Below, in pieces: positions 6,226 to 44,290 of a DNA stretch of 64,000 bases (position 1 is the stretch's first letter; the number at the start of each line of letters is the position of its first letter). The notes below the pieces were generated by a model. The model worked only from the letters and a program-made list of their open reading frames with translations, was not told where the DNA came from and made no database searches. A program made the translations under genes and the position numbers. The DNA lies in the NCBI GenBank assembly GCA_964291625.2, contig OZ220089.1:1376001-1440000 (forward strand), read 5' to 3'. The DNA comes from Candidatus Latescibacterota bacterium. GTDB lineage: Bacteria; Latescibacterota; UBA2968; UBA8231.

Positions 6226-6366
6226 GACTAGTGCTCCGTTGAGGATGCAGACTGAATCCTTTAATCGTGGTCCATGGGACATATGGCGATCTTGAGGGAG
6301 AGAGCCTGCCGTACGAGGGGGACCGCTGCCCCGTTGGAACCTACCTTTTGGAAGGGGAGTCCCAAT

Positions 6367-28573: not shown

Positions 28574-29692
28574 GTGGCTACGGACGACTCCTACCTGCTT
28601 GCCAAGATGGAGGGCGCCTTCCAGCTGCGCGAAGGCCGCGGCATGACCGACCGCGAGCGGCAGTTCGCCATCGCCTCCGCCCATGACGCCGCCGACGAGT
28701 GCCACGCCACCTGCGACGTTGACCGGATGAGGTCCCTCCTCCGGGAGCAGCCGTCGCTCCTCGACACGGTCGGCTCCCTCGCCCTGTCGATGGCCGCCAC
28801 CTATCACGGCACCCACGACGCCGTCGTCTTCCTCCTCGAGCGCGGCGTGCGCACCCTCTACGACTGCGAGACCGGGCTGGCCGGCAAGGGAAATCACGAG
28901 GCGGTCTCGGGGGCCTTCTACTGCGGGAACTTCCAGACCCTGCGGACCCTCTTCGAGGCGGGCGTCACCGACGCCTCCTTCGCCAACATGCCGTGGGTCT
29001 CCTGGCCCCACAAGACGACCCTGCTCCGCATGTCGATCTACCGGCCCCTGGAGTACGCGCGCTTCGCCCTCGAGCACGGGGTCGACCCCGACGAGGAGCT
29101 CCCCTTCAACGAGGAGAGCGGCCGCACGGCCCTGCAGAACGCGGTGGCCCCTCCCATGGGCGGGGGGTGCCTGCCCTGGCACAACCCGGAGCGCTGGGCC
29201 CAGGGGATGAGGTTCGCGGAGTTCCTGCTCTCGGAGGGGGCGTACTACGACATCTTCTCCGCCTGCGGCCGCGGCGACCTCGACCGGCTGCGGACCCTGG
29301 CCGCCGAGGACCCGGCGCTGATCGAAACCCGGGGCGCCGCCGACCTGACCCCCCTGCACTGGGCGGTGCGCGGCAAGTCCCCCGAATGCTCGAGGTGGCT
29401 GCTGGACCACGGCGCCGACGTGAACGCCGAGTCGCTCACCGGCCGCCCGGCCCTGCACATCGCCGCCGAGTGGGGACTCGACGACATGGTCTGGCTCCTC
29501 GCCGGGTACGGCGCCGATCTGGATCCGCAGGACAGGAAGGGGCGGACGCCCCTCCATCGCGCCACCTACCTCGGCGAGGTCGAGGCGGCGGAGGCGCTCA
29601 TCGTGCTGGGAGCCGACACGCGGCTCCGGACCCGCGGCGGCAAGACGGCGATCGAGCTGGCGCGGCTCGGCTGCAAGTACTTGAAGCCGTAG
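28574..29692 (+). CDS. Ankyrin-repeat protein (ANK3)
   Basis: TPLHWAV, PALHIAA and TPLHRAT repeats; paralog of ANK2. Confidence 0.88.
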   Translation: MATDDSYLLAKMEGAFQLREGRGMTDRERQFAIASAHDAADECHATCDVDRMRSLLREQPSLLDTVGSLALSMAATYHGTHDAVVFLLERGVRTLYDCETGLAGKGNHEAVSGAFYCGNFQTLRTLFEAGVTDASFANMPWVSWPHKTTLLRMSIYRPLEYARFALEHGVDPDEELPFNEESGRTALQNAVAPPMGGGCLPWHNPERWAQGMRFAEFLLSEGAYYDIFSACGRGDLDRLRTLAAEDPALIETRGAADLTPLHWAVRGKSPECSRWLLDHGADVNAESLTGRPALHIAAEWGLDDMVWLLAGYGADLDPQDRKGRTPLHRATYLGEVEAAEALIVLGADTRLRTRGGKTAIELARLGCKYLKP

Positions 29693-29709
29693 CCGTAACC
29701 GGCCATCGC

Positions 29710-29738
29710 TTGACCGATCTGAAGCGGGTGTCTACGCT
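29710..29738 (+). promoter_or_regulatory. Sigma70-type promoter TTGACC-17bp-TACGCT
   Basis: -35 at 29710-29715 and -10 at 29733-29738, with an ATG 6 nt downstream (leaderless geometry). The same -10 hexamer occurs in the dinJ promoter. Confidence 0.6.
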
Positions 29739-29744
29739 GAATTC

Positions 29745-29789
29745 ATGGCGACATTGGACCGGATCACCATCGAGTCCGACACCTCGTGA
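29745..29789 (+). pseudogene. 14-aa stub resembling the N-terminus of a DUF433 antitoxin
   Basis: Translates as MATLDRITIESDTS*. LDRITI resembles the usual DUF433 start (..RITxDP..GKPxIRG), and the rest is missing. Confidence 0.4.
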
Positions 29790-29857
29790 TATGCGGGATA
29801 CATTGATTTTGTGAATCCGAAGTTCATGACAACCCGTTCACCATGAAGGGAAACGCG

Positions 29858-30889
29858 ATGCGACTCAACCTCAAAGCAGCGCCGGCCCTTGCCGTTCTGG
29901 CATTGGTCATGTTGGCGAGCGGGGCTGCCAGGGCCCAGACGACCGCCGACCAGGTCGTGGACAATGAAACCCTCAAGGCCTTTGTCGAAGGGGCGAAGGC
30001 GGAAATCGAGGCGATCACGGACGTAAACGAAGGAGCGAAGCTCAGGGACAGGCTGAGGACGGAGGGCCCCTGGAAGTCCGGATCGATGTTCCTCATCATC
30101 TTCCTCAAGAGCGGGGAACCGTTCATCCACGGGAACGACCGCGAGGCGGAGAGCAAGAATCTGATCGGCGTCGAGGACGACAACGGACTCAAGGTCGTCG
30201 AGGAACTCCTCGCGGCCGCTGCCGGAGGCGGCGGTTTCGTCGAATACCACGACGGGGAGGCGAAGACGGCATACGCGGTGGAATACACCTCCGGGATCAC
30301 CGGAAGACAGTTCGTGCTGGTCGGCGGCTACTCGCAGGACGTCTCCCATGTCGCAATCCAGACCGCAGATCTGCCGAAGCCCGCCGTCACCGCATCGCAG
30401 GTCGTGGACCGCGAGACACTCATCACCTTCGTCGAGGAAGCGGCCAAGGTGTACGCCGAAGCCGTCCAGTCCGAAGGCTACAGCGCCCTCACCGGGATCA
30501 GAAACGCCTTCCGGGTGGAAGGAGGGGACTGGAAGTCAGGCTCCATTTATCTGTGGGTCGTCAGTGGCTCGGGCATCATCCTGTTTCACGCAACCGAGCC
30601 GTTCCGCGAAGGCAAGGAAACAGACCTGACGAGGACGGATATCAACGGAGTGCGGTTCGCCGAGGAGCTGATCGAAGGTGCGCGGCGCGAGGGTCGGAGG
30701 TTCCTGCAGTACTACTACGACGACCCCACCATCGAGGGAGACGAGGACACCGGTTCGCCGAAGCTCGGTTACGCGGTGGGCTTCTCGGTGGCCAACTCGG
30801 ACCAGAAGGCCGTCATCGGCTCCGGCATCTATCTGGCAGGACAGACGAATGTCGCGCCCATGTCGTGGGGTAGCTTGAAAGGGCACTAG
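29858..30889 (+). CDS. Secreted tandem Cache-domain-like protein with a C-terminal SWGxLK motif
   Basis: Signal peptide ending ARA-Q; two repeats (WKSGSMFL..HG..DDNG / WKSGSIYL..HA..DING) of single-Cache type; ends TNVAPMSWGSLKGH. Start is 29843 or 29858. Confidence 0.72.
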   Translation: MRLNLKAAPALAVLALVMLASGAARAQTTADQVVDNETLKAFVEGAKAEIEAITDVNEGAKLRDRLRTEGPWKSGSMFLIIFLKSGEPFIHGNDREAESKNLIGVEDDNGLKVVEELLAAAAGGGGFVEYHDGEAKTAYAVEYTSGITGRQFVLVGGYSQDVSHVAIQTADLPKPAVTASQVVDRETLITFVEEAAKVYAEAVQSEGYSALTGIRNAFRVEGGDWKSGSIYLWVVSGSGIILFHATEPFREGKETDLTRTDINGVRFAEELIEGARREGRRFLQYYYDDPTIEGDEDTGSPKLGYAVGFSVANSDQKAVIGSGIYLAGQTNVAPMSWGSLKGH

Positions 30890-30916
30890 ACAACGCGAGA
30901 GGGGATCAGCATCGCC

Positions 30917-31984
30917 ATGGACCGCAGAGAGACCGCCGCCTTCTGGAGACAGGCCTGGATGTCGGAGCACGAACGCCCGCTGACACCGGCCGAGGAGGAG
31001 TTCGTGGACGCCGCCGTTCGCCACACCTCCGACCGCTGGAGCGGCGAGTGCGACGTGGAGCGCATGGCGGCCCTCGTGGAGCGCCATCCCTCGCTGCTGG
31101 AGACGATCGGACCCGCGGTGCTCAACATCGCCGCCTTCCGCCGCGGCTGCGCGCCGGCCCTGGAGTTCCTCCTCGACCGGGGGCTGGTGTTCTCGGTGAA
31201 GGAGTCCGAGTACGGCATCGTCCACGAGGCCGCCTGGGCGGTCTCCACCGACAACCTGCGCATCCTTCTCGAGCGCGGCATGGCCGACCCGAAGAGCACC
31301 TCGAACCCGCACACCGGCTGGCCCGACAACGTCTCCCTCCTCTACTGGCCGGCGGCCCTCCACAACGTGGGCGGACGGGACGGCGAGCCCCTCACCCGGC
31401 TGCTGCTGGAGCACGGCGCCGACCCCGAGGTGAGGTTCAAGGGCAACGGCGAGCGCGGATGCACGGCCCTGCAGGAAGCCTGCGTCTACGGCCGGAGCAA
31501 CCGCGACGGAATCGCCCAGGCCCTGATCGAACACGGCGCCCACTACGACGCCTTCTCCGCCAGCGCCCGGGACGACCTTGACCGCCTGCGCGAGTGCGCA
31601 CGGGAAGAGCCTGACGTGGCGCAATCCCTTGGAGAGGCGGAGATGACCCCCCTCCACTGGGCCGCACGCGCCGGGGCCTTGCGCTGCGGCAAGTGGCTTC
31701 TGAACCACGGCGCGGATGTCGACGCTCAGACCGTCTCCGGGCGGACCCCCCTGCACATGGCCGGCGGCGCCCGGATGCTGTGGCTGCTGGCCGGGAAGGG
31801 CGCGGACCTGAACGCCCAGGACCGGAAGGGCCGCACGCCGTTGCACCAGGCGATGTACGGGGGAGACCTCGAGAAGGCGGAGGTGCTGATCGTGCTCGGC
31901 GCCGATGTGCGCGTCCCCAACCGCCGGGGGAAGACGCCGCTGGAGGTGGCGCGGAAGGACTGCCTGTTCTTCAAGCGAGGGTAA
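30917..31984 (+). CDS. Ankyrin-repeat protein A1 (ANK4)
   Basis: TPLHWAA, TPLHMA and TPLHQA repeats; near-identical paralog at 41415-42503. Confidence 0.9.
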   Translation: MDRRETAAFWRQAWMSEHERPLTPAEEEFVDAAVRHTSDRWSGECDVERMAALVERHPSLLETIGPAVLNIAAFRRGCAPALEFLLDRGLVFSVKESEYGIVHEAAWAVSTDNLRILLERGMADPKSTSNPHTGWPDNVSLLYWPAALHNVGGRDGEPLTRLLLEHGADPEVRFKGNGERGCTALQEACVYGRSNRDGIAQALIEHGAHYDAFSASARDDLDRLRECAREEPDVAQSLGEAEMTPLHWAARAGALRCGKWLLNHGADVDAQTVSGRTPLHMAGGARMLWLLAGKGADLNAQDRKGRTPLHQAMYGGDLEKAEVLIVLGADVRVPNRRGKTPLEVARKDCLFFKRG

Positions 31985-31994
31985 GGGAATCGCG

Positions 31995-33275
31995 ATGTTC
32001 TTCACTTTGGAAGACCCCAACGCCAGGATCAAGGGTTCACGGGATCCCCTTGGCATGCAGCCCATCTGGACAGCATTCGGACGGCACGTCGTCACGAATC
32101 TCACAACCCAGACAAACTCCACACGCGGCTTTACGATCCTGCTTCTGGGACGCTACCTCGCCGAGCGAGCGATCGAGGACGGCCGGATCGGTCGCGAACT
32201 GGCGCTTGATGCCTTCCTGCGCTTCGAGCAGATCGGGGCGTACGTGCGTTACATAGCACACGACGCGGCAGGAGACATCCGCGGCATCGACCGAGTACGA
32301 TCCAGGCTTGACGAGCACCGCGGATTGGTCCCGATTCGAGCGGACTCCGATGGATTCATTCTCGGCGATCAGCGAGTCAACGGACTGTGGGGGTTATTCT
32401 CGGTTTCGGCCCGGGTGTCTCGCCTCATCCCGGATGGCCCCATCGGATTGACACCCGAGGCGACAGCCTTCATCGAACGCGCATATCTGCCGATCTTGGA
32501 GCCCACCATGGAGCGACTGCTGCGGCTTGTCGCGCGGGATGGGCGGCTCGATACCCGTAAGCCCGATGCGATCTTCTCGGCCCTGAGCGAGGTGTTGTCG
32601 GAGTCGTTCACGGTAGAAGAGCAACACTTCTACGGTGAGCATCTTCGCGACGGCCTCCACGTCAAGGGAGCGGAATCCGGCCGCCAGCGGACCTTCCGGG
32701 AGTTGCTCGTCCAGCACACCGAACTAACCCCGCCGACCGACCGCAGCGAAATCGTGCAATTGCAGGGAGCCGCTCGCTCGGTGGATGACGACCTCGCAAG
32801 TCGCCTTGATCAGATTGCCCGGATCGAAGCCGTGCTCGCCCCTGCCATGTCACTCTTCGACTTCATGCTTACATGCCACCACCGACAACTAAGCGACATG
32901 GCGGAAGAGCTCAGAGATCGTTGGGGGGATGCGGTCCCGTTCATCGACGTGGAGAAGAATCAAGACTTGCTCGCCGGCGTCGGCTTGGTTTGGTCCGAGG
33001 CAGTTCTCGGATGCTTCGAACGCTGCCTGCGGGGGCTTTCCGCCGGAGACTACTTGGAAGTCTTGGGGGCGTTGCTCGAGTGGCACAAGAGCATCATGGA
33101 CAGCAGGGGCGGCGCATCATGGGTGCAGATCAGGGAGGACGGGTCGCTGGACGTGAGATACCGAGGAGCGGACGAGAGATTGCCGTCCAGGGATGAACTG
33201 CCTCAATTGTGGCGGAACGGATACTTCATCGATTCCCTGAAGGACATCACCCGGCAACTTGGCAACGCGGCATGA
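31995..33275 (+). CDS. Hypothetical protein, DUF6361-like; first gene of a candidate defence operon
   Basis: N-terminal GSRDPLG...NLTTQTNSTRGF resembles the D[E/P]LG...TxxTRxRYF signature of proteins found beside PLD-helicase pairs; AT-richer codon usage than its neighbours. Confidence 0.6.
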   Translation: MFFTLEDPNARIKGSRDPLGMQPIWTAFGRHVVTNLTTQTNSTRGFTILLLGRYLAERAIEDGRIGRELALDAFLRFEQIGAYVRYIAHDAAGDIRGIDRVRSRLDEHRGLVPIRADSDGFILGDQRVNGLWGLFSVSARVSRLIPDGPIGLTPEATAFIERAYLPILEPTMERLLRLVARDGRLDTRKPDAIFSALSEVLSESFTVEEQHFYGEHLRDGLHVKGAESGRQRTFRELLVQHTELTPPTDRSEIVQLQGAARSVDDDLASRLDQIARIEAVLAPAMSLFDFMLTCHHRQLSDMAEELRDRWGDAVPFIDVEKNQDLLAGVGLVWSEAVLGCFERCLRGLSAGDYLEVLGALLEWHKSIMDSRGGASWVQIREDGSLDVRYRGADERLPSRDELPQLWRNGYFIDSLKDITRQLGNAA

Positions 33276-35317
33276 CCACCTCAGCACGGTTTCCGAGAGC
33301 AGTGCTCTCCGGTCGGCTTGCCGAGGCGCTACAGGGCCGACGGGTGCGCAGCGCCGTTTTCACCACGTTCAACTTCGATCCCGGATTTTTCGAGTTGCAG
33401 GTGCTGCCATTCCTCTTCTCCCAGAGCTTCAGCCAAGTGGACAAGGTGCGGTTGCTTCAGCTTGAGGATGCTCTGCGCGGTGTTGACCACCTGGCGGTCT
33501 ATTACGATCGCGGCGCTCTCTCCCAAGACGCGGAGCCGGCCCGGCTCGACTACCGGCGTATCGATGTCCGCCAAAGGACCGGTGTCTTTCACCCCAAGCT
33601 CGCCTTCGTGCTGGTAGATGAGCCCGAGGACAACCCGAGCGAGACCTCTCAGTCACTGGTGGTGGCCTGCCTCTCAGCGAACCTGAGCCGCGCTGGGTGG
33701 TGGGAAAACCTCGAGTGCGCCCACATCGTGGAAGTCCAGGATCAGGATCGTGCACCCGAGCGGGTTCCGTACCGGCGGGACCTCCTCGCCATTCTGCGTC
33801 GCATCCGTGCCTGTGCAGTAGATGATGATCACCAAGCCCTCGATGCGGTGCATGCCTTCCTCCGCGAACGTGTCTCTTCCGAGCGATACGTAAATGCGAG
33901 CGCAGGAGGACGCTGGCACACACGCCTCTTCGGCGGCGAAGGCAGGTCCGACCTCGCCAACTGGCTGCAAGAGCGCGGTCTCGGTCGCGACGACTGGAAT
34001 CTGGAGGTAATCTCTCCCTACTTCGATGCTCGCGGGGCTGCTCCGCTCAAGCGATTGACGGAGGCACTCAAGGTGCGGGAGACGCGCGTCCATCTGCCGC
34101 GCGATGCGGACGGCTCGCCGCTGGTGACAGTAGACGCATACAGTGCCACGGCCGCCCTCGATGGCGTGCGATGGGCGGAACTGCCAGAGGAGATGACGCG
34201 CCGCTCCGGCAGGGGGTCCGGGGAGCGCCTCACCCCCCGCCGGGTGCACGCGAAAGTGTACCGGCTCTGGCGCGGAGGTGGCGGTGACGTCGTGCTCGTG
34301 GGTTCAGTCAACTGCACGAGTCCGGCGCACAGCCGAGGAGGGGCGGGCAACCTCGAGGCGGCATTCCTGGTCGACATCTCGGACCATCAGGTTCCCAAGC
34401 GCTGGTGGCTTCGGCCCCTCGAGTACGACGCCGAGTGCTTCCCCGAGACCCCGCCGGAAGAAGGCGATGGCCTTGACCAGCCACCGTTCGGCGTCTCCAT
34501 CCGTTACCATTGGGGCGAGCGCGCCCTTGCGGTGCGCGTCGAGAGAGACATAGCGCTGCCGATCGAGGTGATGGATATCTCGGGCCGGCCGCTGTTCACC
34601 ATCCAACACGGAGATGTAGAGCGATGGTTTCTCTGCGATGGAAACGCGGCAACCGCGGTAAGCAAGAGCCTCAAATCGAGCAGCTTCGTGCAAGTGCGTC
34701 ACGGTAACGCTCATTGGCGCGTGCTGGTGCGTGAGGAAGGCATGGCGCACCGCCCTTCCATTCTGAGCGAGCTGAGCCCCGAGGAGATCCTGGAGTACTG
34801 GTCCTTGCTCTCGGCCGAGGAGCGTGCTGCCTTTATCGAGCGTCATGCTGCATTCGACCAGGAGATTGAAGGGATCCCCGCTACCCAAAGGGAATCGCTC
34901 GGGACCGGCGACACCTTGTTCGATCGTTACGCGGGGGTGTACCACGCCTTCGGCTGCCTGCGTCGGACTGTCGAGAAGGCCCTTGAGGACGGCCACCTCG
35001 AGGTGGTGGAAATGAGGTTGCTGGGCGCGAAGTATGACTCTCTGCCCGAGTTGCTCCGGAAGACACTAGAACGCAAGGATGGCGATCCGGTGCTCCGGTA
35101 CGTCACCTTCCTCACCGCAAAGCAGCTTCGGCGCTCCCTCGACAAGCGTCACCGGCAATTCCTTCGCGACCGCAAACTGCTCGTGCGAGAACTCGACAGG
35201 CTGATTGCAGCCGGAGTCAACCGGCGGGACGAGCTGTTTACCCACGACGAGGACCAGACACGAGCCTTCCTCGAATGGTTCGAGCCCGTCTTTCTCAAGG
35301 ACCTGGGACGTCTCTGA
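33272..35317 (+). CDS. Phospholipase D-superfamily nuclease with two HxK motifs
   Basis: FTTFNFD, GVFHPKL...SANLS, ISPYFD and VHAKVY...GSVNCT...NLEA; ATGA overlap with the previous gene. Confidence 0.85.
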   Translation: MTTSARFPRAVLSGRLAEALQGRRVRSAVFTTFNFDPGFFELQVLPFLFSQSFSQVDKVRLLQLEDALRGVDHLAVYYDRGALSQDAEPARLDYRRIDVRQRTGVFHPKLAFVLVDEPEDNPSETSQSLVVACLSANLSRAGWWENLECAHIVEVQDQDRAPERVPYRRDLLAILRRIRACAVDDDHQALDAVHAFLRERVSSERYVNASAGGRWHTRLFGGEGRSDLANWLQERGLGRDDWNLEVISPYFDARGAAPLKRLTEALKVRETRVHLPRDADGSPLVTVDAYSATAALDGVRWAELPEEMTRRSGRGSGERLTPRRVHAKVYRLWRGGGGDVVLVGSVNCTSPAHSRGGAGNLEAAFLVDISDHQVPKRWWLRPLEYDAECFPETPPEEGDGLDQPPFGVSIRYHWGERALAVRVERDIALPIEVMDISGRPLFTIQHGDVERWFLCDGNAATAVSKSLKSSSFVQVRHGNAHWRVLVREEGMAHRPSILSELSPEEILEYWSLLSAEERAAFIERHAAFDQEIEGIPATQRESLGTGDTLFDRYAGVYHAFGCLRRTVEKALEDGHLEVVEMRLLGAKYDSLPELLRKTLERKDGDPVLRYVTFLTAKQLRRSLDKRHRQFLRDRKLLVRELDRLIAAGVNRRDELFTHDEDQTRAFLEWFEPVFLKDLGRL

Positions 35318-38300
35318 TGCGCCCGATCACCCCCAAGTTCCTCGACAAACTGATTGACTTCGCACCATCCGGCGAGGATCGCGACAAGGCCTTCGGCTCC
35401 CAGCAACGCGAAGGAACGGTGGCGGCATTCAACATGCTGGCACAGAACGGTTGCGCGTATCTGGCTGACGAGGTGGGCATGGGCAAGACATACGTCGCCC
35501 TCGGGGTGATGAGCCTCCTGCGTTACTTCGATCCCCATGCACGCATTGTCGTGATCGCGCCAAGAGAGAACATCCAGCGCAAATGGGTGAAGGAGCTACA
35601 CAATTTCGTGGGCCGGAACTGGCGCGTCGTCGGCAACCGAGTGAGATCGCTTCAGGGCAGACCGGTGTGGGAGCCCGTGGTCTGCAACTCGCTCGTCGAG
35701 TTTGCCCGCGAAGCACTGGTCAACCAGGACCGGGATTTCTTCCTGCGCATGACGAGTTTCAGCATCAGGCTGGCGGATTCCGAAGACCGGAGCAAGACCC
35801 GCGACGCCTTGCTCCAGAGCGTCCCCTGGCTCAAACGCCGTGACGTGCCGAATTACAGTCCCGAGGAATTTCGTGACGCCTTCGCCCTTGCCCTGAACCG
35901 CGCGGTGCCGGAGGCCGACTTGGTCATTCTCGACGAAGCCCACAACCTGAAGCATGGGTTCGGCGCCGAGGGCAGCACACGGAACAGGGTCATGGGACTC
36001 GCCTTCGGCCACCCGGAGGGGGAGTCCCTTGGACGACCGTGGTACGTCAAGAGAGCCAAGCGGGTGCTGCTACTCTCGGCCACACCCTTTGAGGACGACT
36101 ACGCCGCCATCCAGCGCCAGCTCGAGGTCTTCGGCTTCGGTAACGCGAAACTCAGAGGGGCAAGTGGTGAAGCCGACGCCAAGGTGACAGACCTCGCCGA
36201 CCCCGATGTCGCGGAGGATCAGAAGCGCCGGATCGCCCAACGCCTTCTCATTCGCCGTGTCTCGGGCCTCAAGATCGCGGGCAGGCTGCATACGAAGAAC
36301 ATGTACCGGCGCGAGTGGCGACGGGGCGGGCTCGAACACCACGACGAGCCAATTGAGATCGATGATCCGAAGCAGCGCCTGATCGTGGCCCTGATGCAGA
36401 AGAAGGTGGCCGAGGTCTTGCAGACTGAGCGGTTCAACAACCATTTCCAGATCGGTATGCTGTCCTCGTTCGAGAGCTTCCTGCAATCTGTGGAGACCGC
36501 GCGCCGTCGGCGGCGGGAGGAGGAGCCAGCCTTCGATGGCGAAGAGCAGCGGCGCGGCTTGAGCGACAGGGAACGCGACGGCATCGACACCGAGGCAATC
36601 GCCGAGGTCGTGCGCTCCTATCGGGAGTCCTTTGAAAGCACCCTGCCTCATCCGAAACTCGATGTGACTGCCAAGGCTCTGTCCAGTGCGTTCGAGACCG
36701 GAGAGAAGACACTCGTATTCGTGCGTCGAGTGGCAACCGTAGAGGAGTTGGCGGCCAAGCTGGACGAGAGATTCGATCGCTGGATCCAGGCACGGATGGA
36801 GGGGCATCTCCCGGAGCTTCACGATGAGATCGGTGAGTTGTTCAATCGCTACGCGAAGGAACGGCTAAGCCGGCCCGACGAAGTCGAAGCCACCGAGGAC
36901 GACGCCGATCTCTCAAGCGAAACAGAGCGCATGGACCGCAGGGACGACCTCGAGGAAGACGACGAGGGAGGGGCGGAGAGCTTCTTCGCCTGGTTCTTCC
37001 GCGGAGACGGTCCGTCCGGCGTGCTCTCTGGGGCCGCGTTTCAGAAGAACCGCCTGTCATCAACCAGTTCCGCGTACGCCACCTTGTTCGAGGACGACTA
37101 CGTGGCAAGCCTCCTCGGGGTCGAAGGAGGTGAGGTGCTCAACTCCCTCGCCCGGGTGACGGGCGAATCTCTGGAGCGTTGCGAAGGACGGTTGCGGACT
37201 CTCGCATTCGGAGTCTTCCACGGACGCAGCCGGCAGCGCGAGGGCTATCCGCGGCTGTACGTGTTCGAGGGTTACCAAGCAGCTGGCCTCGCGCTTCTTC
37301 GGCAGTGTGACGGGAAGATCGCCAAGCAAGCCGGGGTGATGTTGGAAGAGCGGTTCCCGGATTTCCGTCCCACTTCCCTCGAGCCGCCCCCCGGGTTTCC
37401 CGGACCTGGTGTAGGGCTCGGCATCACTACCGTTTTCACCGAACTCCGCAAACGCCCTGCGCTACGGAAGCATCTCTGGCCGGAAGAACACCCCGACGTC
37501 CGCAGAGACCAGAGCAAGTTCCGGACCAAGTTTCGCGACCAAGAGCAGCGCCGCGAGCTCCTGAGCGGCATGAGCCGCCTCGGTGCCCCCTATGTCGATC
37601 TCTATCTGCTGGCGATTCGGCGCATCGGCTCGTTCGCCCTCGGCCAGCGCCGGGAAGCCGAGTCCGCCACTGAACTGGCTTTGGATTTCGTCAACCTCCT
37701 CGATCGCCAGGAGGGTGAACCGGGATTCCACGCCTTCCACGAGCTCTCGCAGGCCGCGGAAGCCTTTGACCAAATCTTGTCCGTCAATTTCCCCGCAGTG
37801 CCGACTTGCCCCCTGCCGGATCTCCGCCGGCTCTACGGCCTCACCCTGCAGAAGCAGGTGCCGGTGGGTCGGATGTCGGGAGGTGTCAATCAGCGCCTAG
37901 TGCGGCAGTTCCGCATGCCCGGCTTCCCCTTGCTGCTGGTTACCACCGACGTGCTGCAGGAAGGCGAGGACCTCCACACCTTCTGCCGGCGGATCGTCCA
38001 CTACGGAATCGCCTGGACACCATCGGCGATGGAGCAGCGCACGGGCCGGGTGGACCGCATCGGGGGTCTGGTGCAGCGCCGCCTCGACGGTTCCCCCGTG
38101 CCTGCTGCGGCCGACGACTTCATCCAGGTCTACTATCCGCACTTGCGCGACACGGTTGAACTCTTGCAGGTGCGCCGCGTGCTCCGCCGCCTCAACAGGT
38201 TCCTGCGCCTGATCCACCGCGGCGACACTGCGGCGGGGGCGGACGGACATGCCATCGACGCGGCCCGTGCACTGCTCGAAGAGGTCGAAGACACGCCGCC

Positions 38301-38850
38301 GATCAAGGGAGAGCTCCAGTCCGCGTTCCCGATTGAGGCCGGTTGGCTCGATGGCGATCTGGGCGCCGACGATGTCACCGTGCCCGACTGGGAGAGCCAG
38401 TACTCTCATCTCGAAACACTCTGGCTAGGGCTTTGCGAGCATCACCGGATCGCCAATCCGACATCCGTCTTCAAGCACCTGCGCCGTGGAGAGTTCCCGG
38501 CTGCCCAAGGCCGGATGCAGCCCTTCACCTTCGGTCTGCGCTCCCAAGTAGCGGGGGACGAGATCCTGATCGAGTGTCAGAGCACGATCGGGTTTGTCGA
38601 CCTGCAGGAAGACGACGTCGTCAATGCACTGATGGACGCCCTCGATGGCACCAGTGGGGTGAAGCTCTGCGTCGATCCGCGCGTCGGCAAGCATCAGGAC
38701 CAGATATACGTCCGGCGTGAGCTGCTGTTCCACCCTGAAGCCACCCGCCTCACGGATGTTCTCGCCATGTTCGAGAACACTCTTCCCCCCGCAGTCCACC
38801 TGCGCGCCTTCCTAGAAGGCACCGGCCTGCTCGGCACGAGCGTTGACTGA
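35317..38850 (+). CDS. SF2 (SNF2/RapA-like) helicase with a C-terminal chaperone-like domain
   Basis: LADEVGMGKT (I), DEAHN (II), LSATP (III), LVFVRRV (IV), TDVLQEGEDLH (V) and EQRTGRVDR (VI); TGATG overlap. Confidence 0.9.
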   Translation: MRPITPKFLDKLIDFAPSGEDRDKAFGSQQREGTVAAFNMLAQNGCAYLADEVGMGKTYVALGVMSLLRYFDPHARIVVIAPRENIQRKWVKELHNFVGRNWRVVGNRVRSLQGRPVWEPVVCNSLVEFAREALVNQDRDFFLRMTSFSIRLADSEDRSKTRDALLQSVPWLKRRDVPNYSPEEFRDAFALALNRAVPEADLVILDEAHNLKHGFGAEGSTRNRVMGLAFGHPEGESLGRPWYVKRAKRVLLLSATPFEDDYAAIQRQLEVFGFGNAKLRGASGEADAKVTDLADPDVAEDQKRRIAQRLLIRRVSGLKIAGRLHTKNMYRREWRRGGLEHHDEPIEIDDPKQRLIVALMQKKVAEVLQTERFNNHFQIGMLSSFESFLQSVETARRRRREEEPAFDGEEQRRGLSDRERDGIDTEAIAEVVRSYRESFESTLPHPKLDVTAKALSSAFETGEKTLVFVRRVATVEELAAKLDERFDRWIQARMEGHLPELHDEIGELFNRYAKERLSRPDEVEATEDDADLSSETERMDRRDDLEEDDEGGAESFFAWFFRGDGPSGVLSGAAFQKNRLSSTSSAYATLFEDDYVASLLGVEGGEVLNSLARVTGESLERCEGRLRTLAFGVFHGRSRQREGYPRLYVFEGYQAAGLALLRQCDGKIAKQAGVMLEERFPDFRPTSLEPPPGFPGPGVGLGITTVFTELRKRPALRKHLWPEEHPDVRRDQSKFRTKFRDQEQRRELLSGMSRLGAPYVDLYLLAIRRIGSFALGQRREAESATELALDFVNLLDRQEGEPGFHAFHELSQAAEAFDQILSVNFPAVPTCPLPDLRRLYGLTLQKQVPVGRMSGGVNQRLVRQFRMPGFPLLLVTTDVLQEGEDLHTFCRRIVHYGIAWTPSAMEQRTGRVDRIGGLVQRRLDGSPVPAAADDFIQVYYPHLRDTVELLQVRRVLRRLNRFLRLIHRGDTAAGADGHAIDAARALLEEVEDTPPIKGELQSAFPIEAGWLDGDLGADDVTVPDWESQYSHLETLWLGLCEHHRIANPTSVFKHLRRGEFPAAQGRMQPFTFGLRSQVAGDEILIECQSTIGFVDLQEDDVVNALMDALDGTSGVKLCVDPRVGKHQDQIYVRRELLFHPEATRLTDVLAMFENTLPPAVHLRAFLEGTGLLGTSVD

Positions 38851-39245
38851 TGGAAGGTCTGCTTCACGGGATTGACGAGCTGATCAAAGAGGAGCGTCTT
38901 CCCTGGACCCGCATCGGCAACCAGGTACGGATCTCGCGCTCGCGAACCGGGCGCTCGCAGGTCGTACGGGTCGCTCGGCGGAGTGACCGCTACGTATTCT
39001 CTTCAGTCATCGCCCGCGTAGCCGCGCTGAATGAAGACCGAAGGGCGCTCGCCTTCCGGCTCTGGCGGCGAAATGCCCTGAAGGCAGTGGTAATGTTCAC
39101 CATTGATCGCCGGGACCGGGTGATCGGTCTGATCGATCAGCCAATCGAGAGCGTGAACCCCAAGGAGATCAAGTTCTACCTCGAGACGCTGGCTCATGAG
39201 TGCGACCGGCTGGAGTACATACTGACCGGAGCGGACATGCGGTGA
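38850..39245 (+). CDS. YbjN / type III secretion chaperone-like small protein
   Basis: 131 aa with a beta-rich start, helix LAFRLWRRN, strands VMFTID/VIGLID and terminal helix LAHECDRLEYILTGAD; TGATG overlap with the helicase. Confidence 0.62.
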   Translation: MEGLLHGIDELIKEERLPWTRIGNQVRISRSRTGRSQVVRVARRSDRYVFSSVIARVAALNEDRRALAFRLWRRNALKAVVMFTIDRRDRVIGLIDQPIESVNPKEIKFYLETLAHECDRLEYILTGADMR

Positions 39246-41395
39246 CGCGCACCGAAACCACTCGTGGCGCGACGCGAAGTCTCGACGCCGGAAACCCACC
39301 CCTTCACGACCCACACCTCCAGGCCGCCCTCGAAGCCGTCCAGGCCGGCGACCCCGAGGCCCTCCGCCCCCTGCTGGAGACCCACCCCTCCATCGTAAAC
39401 ACTCCCCTGCCGCACGACGGCCGCACCCGGCGACCCATGCCGACGCTGCTGCACCGGGCCATCCTCGCCTGGATCGAAGGGGAGCCGCAGGTGCCCCAGC
39501 TGCTGATCGATCACGGCGCCGACGTGAACAGCACGTCGGGCGGGACCCTGGCGCCGCTGGAGATGGCGGCGGCGTCCCTGCACCCGGGGATCGCCGAGCT
39601 GCTGATCGCCAACGGCGCCGACGTGGAGCTGCACGTCGAGCTGCCGCCGGTGGAGGTGGCCGTCCGCTACCAGAGGAGGCAGATCTTCAAGTTCCTGATC
39701 GCGGCGGGCGCGCGGTACGACATCTCCCATACCCTGCGCCTGGGCATGATGGCGGAGACCCGGGCCCTGCTCGCGGCCGATCCGTCTCTGGCCAACATCG
39801 AGACCGACCACGGGCTGCCGCTGAACCTGGCCGTGGGCCGACCCGGCATCTTCAAGCTGCTGCTGCGCCACGGGGCGGACATCCACGCCGAGGACTCCCT
39901 CGGCCTGACGCCGTTGAAGGCGGCGCGAACCCCGGACAGCGGCAAGGAGGTGCGGGCCCTGCTGGAGATGGGCGTCGAGGACGACATCTACGGCGCCATC
40001 TCGGCCGGCGACGAGGACCGGGTCGAGGCGATCCTGAAGGCCGACCCGGCACAGGCCCACCCGGTGGGCTGCTGGCCGCAACGGGGGCCGGTCCCGCCCG
40101 TCATCTGGGCGGTCTGGTCGGGGTCGACGCGCATCCTCGAGCTGATCCTGGAGCAGGACGTGGCCCTCGACATCCGGCCGAACCCGCTCAGCACCGCCAT
40201 CGGCTACGACTACGACGAGATGGTGCGCATGCTGCTGGACAAGGGGGCCTCGCCCGAGTGCGCGGACCCCTCCGACTGGCCGGGGGCCTCCAGGCTGCGG
40301 CCGTACCGTTTCGTCTTTCCGGCGGATCCTCCCCGGCCCCACGTGCCCCTATACACGGCCCTGCGCGGGGGAACCATCGCCGCCGTGGAAATGCTGCTCG
40401 ACGCCGGGGCGGACCCGAACTGCACCCTGACGGACTGGGCCGGCCTTCAGTGGCCGGCGCTGGCGGGCAATCTGCGGCAGGTGAAGCTCCTGCTCGACCG
40501 GGGCGGCGATCCGTCCAGCCCCTGCGCCGAGAGCGCCCTCCGTTGGGCCGTGCAGCTGTGCCGGCGGCCGATGATCGAGCTGCTCGTCACCCGCGGCGTC
40601 GACATCGACACGGTAGACGCGGACGGCCGGGGTCTGCTGGACATGGTGGGCAAGTCCGACTGGAGGCCGCGCCGCCCGGAGCGGGTCCTGACGACCGCCT
40701 TGCTGGAGGAGCTGATGGGGCTCTTCCACGGGTCCCGGCAGGAGGCGCGACTCCTGCGTCTGCGCGGCGACATCATGGACGCGGTCATCGAGGGCCGGAC
40801 CGGCGACCTGCGCGCCGTGCAGGCGGAGGCGCCCGAGCTCCTGGAGCGGGAGCTGGTGCGGGACGAGCTGTTCCACTGGGCCGCCAGCCGGGGTCACGGC
40901 CACGTGGTCGATCTGCTGGCGGAGCTGGGCGCGCCCATGACGATCAGCGTCGCCGCGGCCCTCGGGCGGGCGGAGCTGGTCGACTCCATGTTGGCGGCGG
41001 ACCCGTCCCTGGTGGAGGGAGACCTGACGCCCGAGGAGATCGACTGGAACAAGCACCTGCCCTGGCCCCAGCACCCGCCCCTCGTCGTCGCCGCCATGAA
41101 CGACCGCACAGAGGTGGCGGCGCTGCTGCTGGACCGCGGCGCCCAGATCGACCGCCAGGTCGGCTGGTACCAGACCACGGCCCTCCACCACGCCGTGAGC
41201 AGCGAGTCCACCAAGACCGTCAAGCTCCTGCTGGACCGGGGCGCCGACGTCAGCATCCGCAGCCGGAACCACCACCTGCCGACGGCCCTGGTGAAGAACT
41301 GGCCGCCCACGGTTTCGCGCCGCGAGATCCGCGACCTGCTCGTCGCCCACGGGGCCAACCCCGAGGAACAGCTCCCTCACAGCGCAGGTGAATGA
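39242..41395 (+). CDS. Large ankyrin-repeat protein B1 (ANK5)
   Basis: Many ankyrin units; near-identical paralog at 44291-46387. Start uncertain (GTG 39242 overlaps the previous stop). Confidence 0.88.
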   Translation: MTRTETTRGATRSLDAGNPPLHDPHLQAALEAVQAGDPEALRPLLETHPSIVNTPLPHDGRTRRPMPTLLHRAILAWIEGEPQVPQLLIDHGADVNSTSGGTLAPLEMAAASLHPGIAELLIANGADVELHVELPPVEVAVRYQRRQIFKFLIAAGARYDISHTLRLGMMAETRALLAADPSLANIETDHGLPLNLAVGRPGIFKLLLRHGADIHAEDSLGLTPLKAARTPDSGKEVRALLEMGVEDDIYGAISAGDEDRVEAILKADPAQAHPVGCWPQRGPVPPVIWAVWSGSTRILELILEQDVALDIRPNPLSTAIGYDYDEMVRMLLDKGASPECADPSDWPGASRLRPYRFVFPADPPRPHVPLYTALRGGTIAAVEMLLDAGADPNCTLTDWAGLQWPALAGNLRQVKLLLDRGGDPSSPCAESALRWAVQLCRRPMIELLVTRGVDIDTVDADGRGLLDMVGKSDWRPRRPERVLTTALLEELMGLFHGSRQEARLLRLRGDIMDAVIEGRTGDLRAVQAEAPELLERELVRDELFHWAASRGHGHVVDLLAELGAPMTISVAAALGRAELVDSMLAADPSLVEGDLTPEEIDWNKHLPWPQHPPLVVAAMNDRTEVAALLLDRGAQIDRQVGWYQTTALHHAVSSESTKTVKLLLDRGADVSIRSRNHHLPTALVKNWPPTVSRREIRDLLVAHGANPEEQLPHSAGE

Positions 41396-41414
41396 CACCC
41401 AGGGAGAGGATCGC

Positions 41415-42503
41415 ATGGATCGCAGGGAGACCGCCGCCTTCTGGAGACAGGCCTGGATGTCGGAACACGAACGCCCGCTGACGCCGGCTGAGGAGGAGTT
41501 CGTGGACGCATCCGTTCGCCTCACCTCCGACCGCTGGAGCGGCGAGTGCGACGTGGAGCGCATGACGGCCCTCGTCGAGCGCCTTCCCTCGCTGCTCGAG
41601 ACGATCGGACCCGCGGTGCTCAACATCGCCGCGTACCGGGGCGGCTGCGCCCCGGCCCTGGAGCTCCTGCTCGACCGGGGGCTGGTGTTCTCGGTGGCCG
41701 AGCACCGCGCGAAAGGCGGCAAGGCGTCCGAGTACGACATCGTCCACGAGGCCGCCTGGGCGGTCTCCACCGACAACTTGCGCATCCTCCTCGAGCGCGG
41801 CATGGCCGACCCCAGGAGCACCTCGAACCCGCACACCGGCTGGCCCGACAACGTCTCCCTCCTCTACTGGGCGGCCGTCCAGGGGGGAGACGATGGGGAC
41901 GGCGAGGCCCTCACCCGACTGCTGCTGGAGCACGGCGCCGACCCCGAGGTCAAGTTCAAGGGCAACGGCGAGCGCGGGTGCACCGCCCTGCAGGAGGCCT
42001 GCGTCCACGGACTGGGCAGCCGCGACGGGATCGTCCAGGCCCTGATCGACCACGGCGCCCACTACGACGCCTTCTCCGCCAGCGCCCGGGACGACCTCGA
42101 CCGCCTGCGCCAGTGCGCGCGGGAAGAGCCCGAAGTGGCGCGCTCCCTGGGAGAGGCGGAGATGACCCCCCTCCACTGGGCATCCCGCGCCGGCGCGCTG
42201 CGCTGCGCCAGGTGGCTGCTGAACCACGGAGCGGATGTGGACGCTCAGACCGCGGCGGGGCGGACCCCCCTGCACATGGCCGACGGCCCCGAGATGCTGT
42301 GGCTGCTGGCCGGGAAGGTCGCGAACCTGAACCCCCAGGACCGCAAGGGCCGCACGCCGCTGCACCAGGCGATGTATGGGGGTGACCTTGAGAAGGCGGA
42401 GATCCTGATCGTGCTCGGCGCCGACGTGCGCATCCCCAACCGGCAGGGGAAGACACCGCTGGAGGTGGCGCGCAAGGAGTGCCTGTTCTTCAAGCGGGGG
42501 TGA
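41415..42503 (+). CDS. Ankyrin-repeat protein A2 (ANK6)
   Basis: Same MDRRETAAFWRQAWMSEHER start and CLFFKRG end as A1; GGAGAGG RBS. Confidence 0.9.
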   Translation: MDRRETAAFWRQAWMSEHERPLTPAEEEFVDASVRLTSDRWSGECDVERMTALVERLPSLLETIGPAVLNIAAYRGGCAPALELLLDRGLVFSVAEHRAKGGKASEYDIVHEAAWAVSTDNLRILLERGMADPRSTSNPHTGWPDNVSLLYWAAVQGGDDGDGEALTRLLLEHGADPEVKFKGNGERGCTALQEACVHGLGSRDGIVQALIDHGAHYDAFSASARDDLDRLRQCAREEPEVARSLGEAEMTPLHWASRAGALRCARWLLNHGADVDAQTAAGRTPLHMADGPEMLWLLAGKVANLNPQDRKGRTPLHQAMYGGDLEKAEILIVLGADVRIPNRQGKTPLEVARKECLFFKRG

Positions 42504-42525
42504 CCCGCGGCGTCCATCAGTTCTC

Positions 42526-44262
42526 GTGGACTACAAGGAAACCTTGACCAGACCTGCACTTGTCGCAGCTGTCTTTCTGGCTCTCCACGTACTTCCCCTC
42601 CTCTGGAGGCCCAACCCTCTGTGGGGCGCGGATCTCCTCTTCTACCATGCCCCATTGTACCGGGGCATCTTCATTCTGCTCGCTGTCCTGCTGTTCATCC
42701 CCGCCATCCGGAGCCGAGTCCAGGGTATTGCTCGAACCCTTCCGCTCTCCCCCTGGGAGTCGGGACGTAGTGCCTGGCTCATCAAGGCCCTGGTCCTGCT
42801 CATCGCGCTCGCCGTCTTCGTCGCCCTGCGTTCGGCCTGCCATCTTCTGGGCGATGGTTACCTCCTTCTGCGGGACTTGGACGCAGGCATCCTGCAGCCC
42901 ACCCACCGAGCGCCATTTACCTTCGTCCTTGTTCGCTTCCTGCACAGCACCGGGGGCCCACTCTGGGAGACTGCTGAGAACACCTACCGAACTTACAGCT
43001 ACGTCTCCGGCGCCATCTACGTTCTGATCGCCTTCCCCGTTGCCGGTACCCTCGGCAAGACCCCTCTGAAGAAGTCCATCGTCCTGGCCTTCCTGTTGAC
43101 CGGCGGGTTCCTGCAACTCTTCTCCGGCTATGTGGAGAACTACGCCCTCTACATGCCGGGCATCCTCCTCTACCTTCTTCTGGGCATGCGAGTCCTCGAG
43201 AACCGCATGTCCATCTACGTTCCCGCGCTCTTGCTGAGCTTGCTTGTCAACCTTCATCTCGCTCTTGCCCTCTTTAGCCCGTCCCTGCTCATGCTCGTCT
43301 ATCGCAACTACTGCAACAAGCGGGGTCTCGGTCCACGCTGGAGAAACTGGCTCTCTACTGCGACGGCAGTATGTGTGGTCCCGCTGGGGGCGGCACTCTT
43401 TCTCTGGCTCTCCGGCGTTGAGTTCCTGGCCTACTTGGGACGCGCTGGTGACAGCCATCTCCTGCCCGTTCTTGCACAACCTGACTTTCGCGATCCTTAC
43501 CGCCTCTTCTCCCTGTCTCACCTCCTCGACTTTCTCAACCTGCAACTACTAGCCGCCCCTGCCGCGTGCATGGCCCTCTTCCTGCTCGGCAAGAGATCCT
43601 TCGGCCATCACCCCTTCCTTCTCTCCGCCGCGGCTTTCCCCCTGCTCTTCACCTTTCTCGCCAACCCCGAAATTGGTGCCTTCCGAGACTGGGACATTCT
43701 CGCCCTCCCGGCCCTGCCGCTCACGCTCTGGGCAGCCTCCGCGCTCCTTTCACGAATGCGTGATCCGAACAGCGCTTTCCAGGCGGCCTTCCTCATCTGC
43801 GGTGCTGCCGCCCTGCACAGTCTCATGTGGATCGGTCTGAATGCCAGTCCCACGGCCGCCGAGACCCGATACGCCCACCTCATGGACAGACTCACTGGCC
43901 ATGCGGCCTCCTATGGATGGGAAACGCTGGGAAGCTACTACCACCTGCAGGACAACCCAGGATCCGCCCTCAACGCCTACCAGCGCGCCCTCGACGCCAA
44001 CCCGGACAACCCTCGGCACTGGTTGGCTGTCGGATACAGCCGTTACATCATGGGGCAGTACGAAGAGTCAATTCGGTTCTTCCGGAGAGCCGTGGAGATC
44101 AACCCCAACCTACCAAAGGCCCACCTCAATTTGGGCATGGCCTATCGGGCGCTGAAGCGCATGGAAGAAGCCAGATCAAGCCTTGCAAGAGTCCTGGAGC
44201 TCGATCCCGACAATCCTCAGGCAGAAAGGATCCGACGATTCCTCGCGAAGCACAGGAAATAG
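42526..44262 (+). CDS. Polytopic membrane protein (GT-C-like) with C-terminal TPRs
   Basis: Many hydrophobic segments; LLGDG, GYVENYA and RDWDI motifs; three TPRs (AVEINPNLPKAHLNLG); AT-richer than the flanking genes. Confidence 0.75.
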   Translation: MDYKETLTRPALVAAVFLALHVLPLLWRPNPLWGADLLFYHAPLYRGIFILLAVLLFIPAIRSRVQGIARTLPLSPWESGRSAWLIKALVLLIALAVFVALRSACHLLGDGYLLLRDLDAGILQPTHRAPFTFVLVRFLHSTGGPLWETAENTYRTYSYVSGAIYVLIAFPVAGTLGKTPLKKSIVLAFLLTGGFLQLFSGYVENYALYMPGILLYLLLGMRVLENRMSIYVPALLLSLLVNLHLALALFSPSLLMLVYRNYCNKRGLGPRWRNWLSTATAVCVVPLGAALFLWLSGVEFLAYLGRAGDSHLLPVLAQPDFRDPYRLFSLSHLLDFLNLQLLAAPAACMALFLLGKRSFGHHPFLLSAAAFPLLFTFLANPEIGAFRDWDILALPALPLTLWAASALLSRMRDPNSAFQAAFLICGAAALHSLMWIGLNASPTAAETRYAHLMDRLTGHAASYGWETLGSYYHLQDNPGSALNAYQRALDANPDNPRHWLAVGYSRYIMGQYEESIRFFRRAVEINPNLPKAHLNLGMAYRALKRMEEARSSLARVLELDPDNPQAERIRRFLAKHRK

Positions 44263-44290
44263 TGTGCCCAGAGGGACTTGGGATTCCCCA

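Follow-up and report, generated by a model that had tools for sequence, protein, structure and literature searches.

A four-gene, Azaca-like nuclease–helicase operon with a predicted chaperone-fold partner for its helicase in a Latescibacterota genome

Introduction

Nuclease–helicase defence systems are common. To our knowledge, however, their control is mostly unknown, and the third protein of one of them, the validated anti-phage system Azaca, which was reportedly discovered by Millman et al. in 2022, has no assigned role. The locus described here consists of four co-oriented genes (g1–g4) at positions 31995–39245 of a 64,000-nucleotide stretch of a Candidatus Latescibacterota genome (the window), encoding in turn a protein without a Pfam family, a phospholipase D (PLD)-family nuclease, a superfamily 2 (SF2) helicase and a small protein of 131 amino acids. 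Is this a described three-gene system with a stray reading frame behind it or a machine of four parts, and what might such a machine do?

Our answer is that the operon probably encodes a four-component, horizontally moving, Azaca-like DNA-targeting nuclease–helicase system whose helicase carries a two-part chaperone-like module, with action against phage or other foreign DNA as the most likely role. The parts of this reading are not equally secure: our confidence is higher for g4 as an integral helicase partner and lower for defence as the function, a role that we infer from kinship with Azaca.

The operon

All coordinates are window positions; the window has a GC content of 68% and belongs to a genome of 5.9 Mb. 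The parts of the operon are as follows.

31995–33275, + strand: g1, 426 aa; distant PDC-M27A-like protein in the position that ZacA occupies in Azaca
33272–35317, + strand: g2, 681 aa; single-chain double-HKD PLD-family nuclease with a conserved C-terminal region (residues ~400–681)
35317–38850, + strand: g3, whole open reading frame (ORF), 1177 aa; SF2 helicase
35317–38379, + strand: g3 residues 1–1021; SF2 helicase core of SNF2/DrmD/DpdE-like type, its two RecA lobes separated by a long insertion
38380–38850, + strand: g3 C-terminal domain, residues ~1022–1177; predicted type III secretion system (T3SS) chaperone/YbjN fold and predicted docking site for g4
38850–39245, + strand: g4, 131 aa; predicted T3SS chaperone/YbjN fold; putative fourth subunit
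31981–39305, no strand: strain-specific island; homology to two genomes of the same genus (G002 and G006) ends at 31980 and restarts at 39306

An earlier note on this DNA, made from the letters alone, had described four co-oriented genes joined by ATGA/TGATG overlaps, and all four ORFs are present on the + strand as it said: the g1/g2 junction is an ATGA overlap, the g2/g3 junction a 1-nt TGATG overlap and the g3/g4 junction again a TGATG overlap. The g1 ATG lies 11 nt beyond the stop codon (31982–31984) of the upstream ankyrin gene. The starts of the longest ORFs (31905, 33209 and 35275) are judged less likely than the overlap starts, because homologue alignments begin at the latter. The operon is also AT-richer than the ankyrin genes around it, again as noted before. 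GC content in 1-kb windows inside 32000–38999 is 0.61–0.66, against 0.70–0.75 in typical flanks, and 0.629 over 31985–39305 against ~0.71 in neighbouring host genes; GC at third codon positions (GC3) is 0.73–0.78 in g1–g4 and 0.92–0.99 in the neighbouring ankyrin and pyruvate dehydrogenase (PDH) E1 genes. No public RNA run is listed as containing the operon.

A predicted chaperone-like pair: g4 and the helicase tail

Family searches leave g4 unplaced, with no Pfam family at E ≤ 0.1, nothing in PADLOC and only sub-threshold noise in NCBIfam. NCBIfam also gave a weak excisionase match (E 0.0038), whose 17.6 bits fall short of the 28.8-bit cut-off; since the predicted fold of g4 is clearly not a winged helix, we treat it as noise. 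The AlphaFold2 (AF2) model of g4, with a predicted local distance difference test score (pLDDT) of 89.8, consists of a helix, four strands, a helix, two strands and a helix, and its best Foldseek matches are ExsC, YbjN, SpcU, SchA, AmyR and SycH. When the model was compared with 48,161 chains using VIA-align, chain 8q8o_B was matched at Z 14.7 (root-mean-square deviation, rmsd, 2.3; 122 aligned), and 20 chaperone or YbjN chains stood at Z 9.5–14.7 before the next dropped to 6.7.

The last ~200 residues of g3 show a conservation pattern that pointed to a g4-like topology, and the AF2 model of the g3 C-terminal domain (pLDDT 82.2) has its elements in the same order as g4. VIA-align returned the same 20 structures for this domain (Z 8.5–11.9; next chain 7.3), the best example being 1jyo_A (Z 11.9, rmsd 3.1, 125 aligned). 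As modelled, the fold of both g4 and the helicase tail is that of the T3SS class I chaperones and YbjN, an α-β-α sandwich whose five-stranded meander sheet has helices on its flanks. The earlier description of g4 as YbjN-like is thus upheld at the level of predicted fold, by AF2, Foldseek and VIA-align alike, and so is the statement that the gene belongs to no described system: it has no PADLOC, Pfam or NCBIfam match above noise and no description in the literature searched.

A direct g3–g4 pairing is supported by complex prediction, using a 14-row alignment for the g3 C-terminal domain and a 29-row alignment for g4. The score was 0.77 (0.77, 0.72 and 0.79 in three runs), whilst the best of three controls reached 0.00. 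A mark of 0.77 is attained by 58 of 80 solved complexes and by 2 of 110 mismatched pairs, counts that are only rough here because custom alignments were used. Contact agreement between runs was at least 65%, and partner pLDDT at least 82. The predicted contacts with the lowest error run from W72, R73 and N75 in the central helix of g4 to g3 residues 1116–1121 (KLCVDP), especially K1116–C1118. Across 41 sequences W72 and N75 do not vary; on the g3 side C1118 is invariant and K1116 nearly so. In these models g4 appears to dock onto the helicase C-terminal domain via central helices, in the manner of chaperone dimers; the chaperone heterodimer SycN–YscB (1xkp) is itself among the fold matches.

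The likeness to the T3SS chaperones and YbjN (the 'TY-chaperones' of PMC9503650) lies in a predicted α-β4-α-β2-α fold, common to g4 and the g3 tail, and in a predicted dimer whose halves meet at the central helix, an arrangement shared with chaperone dimers such as the SycN–YscB heterodimer. Unlike those proteins, g4 has no Pfam or NCBIfam chaperone or YbjN sequence match, the operon has no secretion-system context, and one half of the predicted dimer is a domain of a helicase. The accessible text of Iyer et al. (2022; PMC9503650) places T3SS/YbjN-type chaperones in other predicted conflict systems, and that text does not mention attachment to a helicase–nuclease.

Co-occurrence and fusion of the four genes

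A word-based search for g4 returned 79 clusters of ~131-aa proteins with 58–91% identity, none with a Pfam family, whose source-named members are called 'hypothetical protein'. When 1.84 billion representatives were searched exhaustively with a profile, 531 relatives emerged at E ≤ 1e-3, 386 of them at E ≤ 1e-10. There is in addition a numerous subgroup of ~124-aa relatives (for example P0280, P0284 and P0286; E 1e-23 to 1e-28), which may be the mark of a further variant system.

The order g1-g2-g3-g4, with overlaps or short gaps, recurs in 12 of the 17 loci obtained by seeding genome contigs with the g4 profile. These 12 span Pseudomonadota, Acidobacteriota, Planctomycetota and Myxococcota, the taxa represented being Gammaproteobacteria, Arenicellales, Terriglobia, Bryobacterales, Versatilivorator, Planctomycetota, Phycisphaeraceae and the myxobacterium Paraliomyxa. 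Two loci (L009 and L018) hold g4 fragments, two more (L006 and L007) are decayed copies described below, and one, in a Paracoccaceae metagenome-assembled genome (MAG), holds an orphan g4 homologue (L005:9902-10315, profile positions 18–131) with no g1–g3 within 10 kb on either side.

For the reverse test, metagenome contigs were seeded with the g1 profile and the best 80 of 175 loci taken, a locus being testable where g3 was complete and followed by at least 400 nt. In all 24 testable loci g4 follows g3. As for the others, 53 contigs end too early, one has no room after g3 and two (L054 and L055) are deletion remnants in which g4 persists. A g1 homologue with no g2 or g3 in the next 5.7 kb was met once (L098, 2469–3794; counted among the 53), the sole exception of its kind. 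Altogether the 36 four-gene loci fall into 29 clusters at ≥ 95% nucleotide identity from at least four named phyla, so that the four-gene order, which the earlier note had proposed to check among homologues, is a recurrent one.

A very close copy of the operon exists elsewhere, since another public run, whose label gives a different source organism, contains 43% of its sampled words, and two proteins of an 88-kb contig (P0005 and P0087) are 91–93% identical to g4 and g1.

In some lineages the third and fourth genes have become one. An uninterrupted frame covers g3 and g4 in L053, L059, L061 and L074, whilst in L060 and L062, members of the 95% cluster of L059, g4 is joined to the g3 C-terminus and a frame break lies further upstream. 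Amongst 149 of the 150 best listed of the 531 g4 relatives, five are full-length g3–g4 fusions of 1310–1446 aa that cover the whole g3 profile, and eight are N-truncated fusions in which the C-terminal part of g3 precedes g4. A maximum-likelihood tree was built from 30 rows of g2, with the near-duplicates L012, L020, L027, L032, L060, L061 and L062 excluded; it requires three changes to account for the three fused lineages, and a single origin is seen in 0% of bootstrap trees. The history could be one of three gains, or of one gain with later losses; as judged from the alignments and tree, the g3–g4 link is one that has been made covalent repeatedly under either.

Relationship to Azaca, PDC-M27 and other systems

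To which known system do the first three genes belong? The g2 protein matches PADLOC ZacB (1.2e-19, 69 bits) and PDC-M27B (4.2e-13, 47 bits); in Pfam only PLDc_2 is found, below its cut-off (0.0031), and NCBIfam gives nothing. Comparison by hhalign with two ZacB proteins returned a probability of 94.6% (E 6.8e-8, 349 columns). Both HxK motifs seen by the earlier note are real: H107-x-K109...S135-A136-N137 and H326-x-K328...G344-S345-x-N347 are invariant in 14/14 aligned homologues. In g3, Pfam recognises Helicase_C (1.3e-10), ResIII (8.8e-8), DEAD (9.9e-7) and SNF2-rel, and the PADLOC matches are to PDC-M27C (1.7e-76, 256 bits), to ZacC over short motif stretches only (5.7e-25, 86 bits) and, more weakly (1e-9 to 1e-18), to the DrmD, DpdE and BrxH models. 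Helicase motifs I–VI had been called intact, which holds for those looked at individually: motif I (G54, G56, K57, T58), the DExH motif II (D206, E207, H209), motif III (S254, A255, T256) and motif VI (Q907–R911) are invariant in 14/14 homologues.

The g1 protein matches PADLOC PDC-M27A (4.1e-20) in its C-terminal half only, and PDC-M27A is matched by 10/10 of its homologues; Pfam and NCBIfam have no family for g1, nor does Pfam for its homologues. The N-terminal motif block of g1 is strongly conserved (including G14, S15, D17-P18-L19-G20 and R44-G45-F46-T47). Scoring of 8000 candidates placed 724 clusters in the g1 family at E ≤ 1e-3, and none of the best 120 has a Pfam domain. The description of g1 as DUF6361-like in the earlier note finds support in none of the tests. 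Neither ZacA nor PF19888 matches g1 at E ≤ 0.1, and none of the 10 homologues matches either (Pfam E ≤ 1, PADLOC E ≤ 0.01). PF19888 itself is without a match in this genome at E ≤ 10, and without one in 5/5 other genomes that carry the system. The hhalign probability for the g1 profile against three real DUF6361 proteins is 1%, although a distant homology may remain because both alignments are shallow (10 and 3 sequences). The ESM Atlas offered no more than a 0.84 lead from g1 to a DUF6361 cluster.

Positive controls place these scores in context. Two gammaproteobacterial loci found via Pfam DUF6361 (L106 and L107; 3/400 scored genomes) are canonical Azaca systems, with ZacA at 1.9e-125 and 1.4e-102, ZacB at 572 and 462 bits and ZacC at 1152 and 1018 bits over its full length. 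A canonical PDC-M27 (L101) is found on the mobilizable Rhodoferax antarcticus plasmid NZ_CP019242.1, with 605, 805 and 1287 bits for A, B and C and a helicase of 869 aa. Profiles of the g3 C-terminal domain and of g4 found nothing in these three loci (search at E ≤ 10; printed i-Evalue < 1 for L101 and < 0.1 for Azaca), and no co-oriented small gene follows the helicase in any of them. The co-absence of domain and gene rests on one PDC-M27 and two Azaca loci, a sample that stays at this size because a wider PDC-M27A scan gave 1/400 genomes.

The present operon shares with Azaca overlapping genes in the same order, namely a protein in the DUF6361 position, a PLD nuclease and a large SF2 helicase; g2 is homologous to ZacB at superfamily level, short of close membership, and g3 shares SF2 motifs with ZacC. 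It differs in that g1 is not DUF6361/ZacA, that g3 matches ZacC over short motifs only and not over its full length, and that the helicase has a predicted chaperone-fold C-terminal domain and the operon a fourth gene, neither of which is found in the two Azaca loci examined. PDC-M27 has the identical three-gene order and supplies the best hidden Markov model for g1 (10/10 homologues) and for g3, but its canonical helicase at L101 is 869 aa long and lacks both the extra domain and g4, whilst here the helicase has 1177 aa and both are present. Matches to the ZacB, ZacC and PDC-M27A/B/C models support the earlier suggestion of kinship between genes 1–3 and a three-gene helicase system of the Azaca kind. 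Taken together, these comparisons indicate that the operon shares architecture and PLD ancestry with Azaca and PDC-M27 and is yet a separate, distant four-gene clade. What seems to be new, on the same comparisons, is a previously unrecorded fourth subunit with a matching helicase domain in a system of the Azaca/PDC-M27 class. Neither PDC-M27 nor a four-gene Azaca variant is named in searchable papers, and supplementary lists might name the clade.

DISARM (DrmD), Dpd (DpdE), BREX (BrxHI/HII) and Mokosh, too, pair PLD nucleases with helicases and have SF2 motifs in common with g3. Only short helicase-motif stretches match, however, and in NCBIfam DpdE (74 bits, cut-off 500) and DrmD (70 bits, cut-off 610) reach about one-seventh of their cut-offs. 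Assignment of the operon to DISARM or Dpd was rejected in view of these sub-cut-off scores and of neighbours that are ankyrin, Cache and tetratricopeptide repeat (TPR) genes. The kinship with DISARM, Dpd and Mokosh that had been raised before thus comes down to generic SF2 resemblance. Amongst the 10 neighbours scanned there is no methyltransferase or DUF1998 gene, in agreement with the earlier note, and the same scan found no DrmA/B, dpd or BREX genes adjoining the operon.

Horizontal acquisition

The window was compared by blastn with the matching regions of the two same-genus genomes (G002:C124 and G006:C5). Homology breaks off at 31980, where one ankyrin gene ends, and returns at 39306, where the next begins. 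The same slot in G002, between flanks that are 93% identical, is occupied by a 1.74-kb segment with a 565-aa frame, and in G006 by a segment of ~0.96 kb and 51% GC with a 234-aa frame. The PDC-M27A model matches this genome (G000) alone among 168 genomes of the phylum; in a sampled class of which 400 genomes were scored it matches one, the genome on which the sample was centred. The g4 gene was not found in 40 relatives. The g2 sequences nearest to this one come from a metagenome contig, at 74% identity, and from a gammaproteobacterial MAG. Composition, different same-genus cargo and sporadic distribution support the conclusion that the operon was horizontally acquired, as the earlier note had supposed. 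A tblastn search of plasmids with g1 gave one match, on the Rhodoferax antarcticus plasmid. No tRNA lies at the island, and flanking or boundary repeats do not rise above chance. Within 31500–39700 there is no sigma-70-like promoter, and three terminator-like sites are found against 5.0 expected by chance.

A possible mechanism

How might such a system work? The closest guide is BmAzaca, for which a preprint (bioRxiv 10.1101/2025.07.10.664194) reports that ZacA, ZacB and ZacC are all needed to cut phage T4 DNA, that neither the PLD site nor the Walker A motif of the helicase is dispensable, and that modified T4 DNA is preferred. By analogy, g1 would assemble into one complex with the nuclease (g2) and the helicase (g3), in which ATP-driven translocation by g3 would deliver g2 to invading DNA or license it to cleave. 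The predicted structures, the co-occurrence and the fusions further suggest that the helicase tail and g4 would pair through their central helices to form a two-part chaperone-like module. More speculatively, this module might grip an extended peptide; candidates are a segment of g1 or g2, with a part in assembly or autoinhibition, or a phage protein, in which case the module might serve in sensing. Binding of the peptide would then control nuclease activity. The most specific version is one we regard as unlikely: the g3 C-terminal domain and g4 would form a split peptide clamp and sensor that captures a disordered stretch of some phage protein, a capture that would switch on the helicase–PLD nuclease, much as a T3SS chaperone grips the unfolded N-terminus of its effector.

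Several observations weigh against a four-component defence system of this kind. The first concern the module. When compared by hhalign, the g3 C-terminal domain and g4 are not significantly similar (P 0.25), nor are full-length g3 and g4 (P 0.08); the former value leaves a common ancestry of domain and protein without support. Furthermore, the complex score may mirror likeness to solved chaperone dimers, and not binding between the present two partners, because homodimers and heterodimers such as SycN–YscB have been solved.

A second group concerns kinship. No homology of g1 to ZacA/DUF6361 is detectable by the tests run. On the PDC-M27 A, B and C models the operon's proteins score 70, 47 and 256 bits, 5–17 times below the canonical system and with partial coverage, and on ZacB and ZacC 69 and 86 bits against 462–572 and 1018–1152, or 7–13 times lower. 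PDC-M27 is itself only a PADLOC candidate, phage defence candidates (PDCs) being, according to bioRxiv 10.1101/2024.09.26.614923, unvalidated PADLOC predictions, and a defence role for the present clade is argued by analogy.

A third group concerns the copies and where they lie. Decayed copies exist (L006, L007, L035, L054 and L055): in L006, from a Bryobacterales MAG, g1 is absent and g3 is split by a ~2.4-kb insertion (4783–7174); L007 keeps only the g3 C-terminus and g4; and in L054 and L055 large internal deletions have removed parts of g2 and g3, leaving g1 and g4 intact. (The L006 insertion carries a 569-aa frame at 5474–7183.) Amongst IMG/VR viral contigs the g4 profile gave eight pattern matches, none confirmed, and a tblastn search of 72,556 plasmids with g2 gave no match at 1e-5. 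The earlier note had asked whether homologues lie in defence islands, and here the outcome is mixed. Strong defence genes adjoin several copies, with matches to PglZ (2.4e-225), BrxD (1.7e-201), HmaA (7.6e-238) and, in four ORFs, MkoA-like proteins. The flanks of 24 other loci (145 ORFs) are nevertheless heterogeneous and include histidine biosynthesis genes, an ammonium transporter, transposases, recombinases and helix-turn-helix (HTH) proteins, and only 3/9 of the largest flanking ORFs have a PADLOC match at 1e-10. Since this tally is without a background control, enrichment is not claimed, and we limit the statement to a self-contained mobile cassette sometimes found beside defence genes.

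Alternative explanations

Three other explanations have to be set beside the four-component system. The best of them, which we nonetheless think improbable, makes g4 a releasable, antitoxin-like inhibitor that masks the helicase tail and restrains a self-toxic PLD–helicase until a phage removes or degrades it, the outcome being abortive infection and not selective restriction. The small size of g4, its place as last gene and its translational coupling to g3 would suit such a role, as would the tight interface predicted between it and the C-terminal domain of g3, the orphan copy in L005 and the retention of g4 in L054 and L055 where g2 and g3 have suffered deletion. At least three independent covalent g3–g4 fusions are, however, ill-suited to a subunit whose action would require its release or degradation, and BmAzaca cuts phage DNA selectively in vitro, as stated in the preprint cited above (bioRxiv 10.1101/2025.07.10.664194).

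Less probable again is a machine with no part in immunity, concerned with DNA repair, recombination or mobile-element maintenance, in which a helicase–nuclease would serve the replication, partition or competition of its element. The defence reading is argued from analogy, the flanks of the other loci mix housekeeping genes with transposases and recombinases, and the title of a reference in PMC9503650 describes the YbjN-family protein DR1245 as a partner of the DNA-repair protein DdrB. Against this stand the sporadic, horizontally transferred distribution (1/168 genomes of the phylum and 1/400 in the sampled class), the homology to the Azaca PLD and the PDC-M27 helicase, the strong defence genes that adjoin several copies, and the self-contained nature of a system that has no conserved neighbours and with which no replication or integration genes are conserved.

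The last, that this is plain PDC-M27 or Azaca and g4 an unrelated hitch-hiking ORF or an annotation artefact, would fit the three-gene definition that PADLOC gives to both systems and the want of a family match for g4, but it is very improbable and already contradicted by the co-occurrence and fusion data, g4 being present in 24/24 testable loci, conserved at 58–91% identity across 79 clusters, confidently folded in prediction, fused to g3 in several lineages and linked to it by co-conserved predicted contacts, whilst neither g4 nor the corresponding helicase domain is present in the canonical three-gene systems examined.

The ankyrin array around the operon

The operon lies within an array of ankyrin genes, the features of which are listed here.

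28574–29692, 30917–31984, ~39306–41395, 41388–42503 and 44183–46387: ankyrin-repeat neighbours
29843–30889: Cache-domain (sCache) gene, upstream flank
42526–44262: TPR gene, downstream flank

The array (28574–46387), which has counterparts in G006 (L099) and G002 (L100), repeats a pattern of one-repeat gene, slot and two-repeat gene, and its slots carry variable cargo of lower GC: in the present genome the four-gene island and the TPR gene (42526–44262, GC 0.61), in G002 the 565-aa frame and a TPR-like frame, and in G006 the 234-aa frame (51% GC) and a 151-aa frame. With paralogous ankyrin genes as its borders, the array has the look of a hotspot at which foreign genes recombine. The two-repeat ankyrin gene starts with ATGAAC in G002 and in the second unit of this genome, and the corresponding letters downstream of g4 (39200–39330) are ACGACC; the start of the ankyrin gene after g4 may have moved to an in-frame GTG at 39200, within the last part of g4; alternatively, this ankyrin gene may be impaired. 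The Cache-domain gene (29843–30889) is atypical in composition as well (GC 0.62, GC3 0.82); it is present in G002 and absent from the matching region of G006.

Significance

PADLOC models reach this widespread clade weakly (724 g1-family clusters, 531 g4 representatives, at least four named phyla) and miss its fourth component altogether. What the clade adds to the nuclease–helicase systems is a clearly delimited module, a helicase domain with a predicted chaperone fold and a small protein to match, fused in some lineages; relatives with and without this module provide a natural handle on how such complexes may be assembled, restrained or triggered. The YbjN/T3SS-chaperone fold for its part gains a concrete, testable, predicted partner outside secretion systems. 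If the clamp-and-sensor mechanism were true, it would amount to a new mode of infection recognition in nuclease–helicase immunity and would give the YbjN/T3SS-chaperone fold its first assigned role in antiviral immunity.

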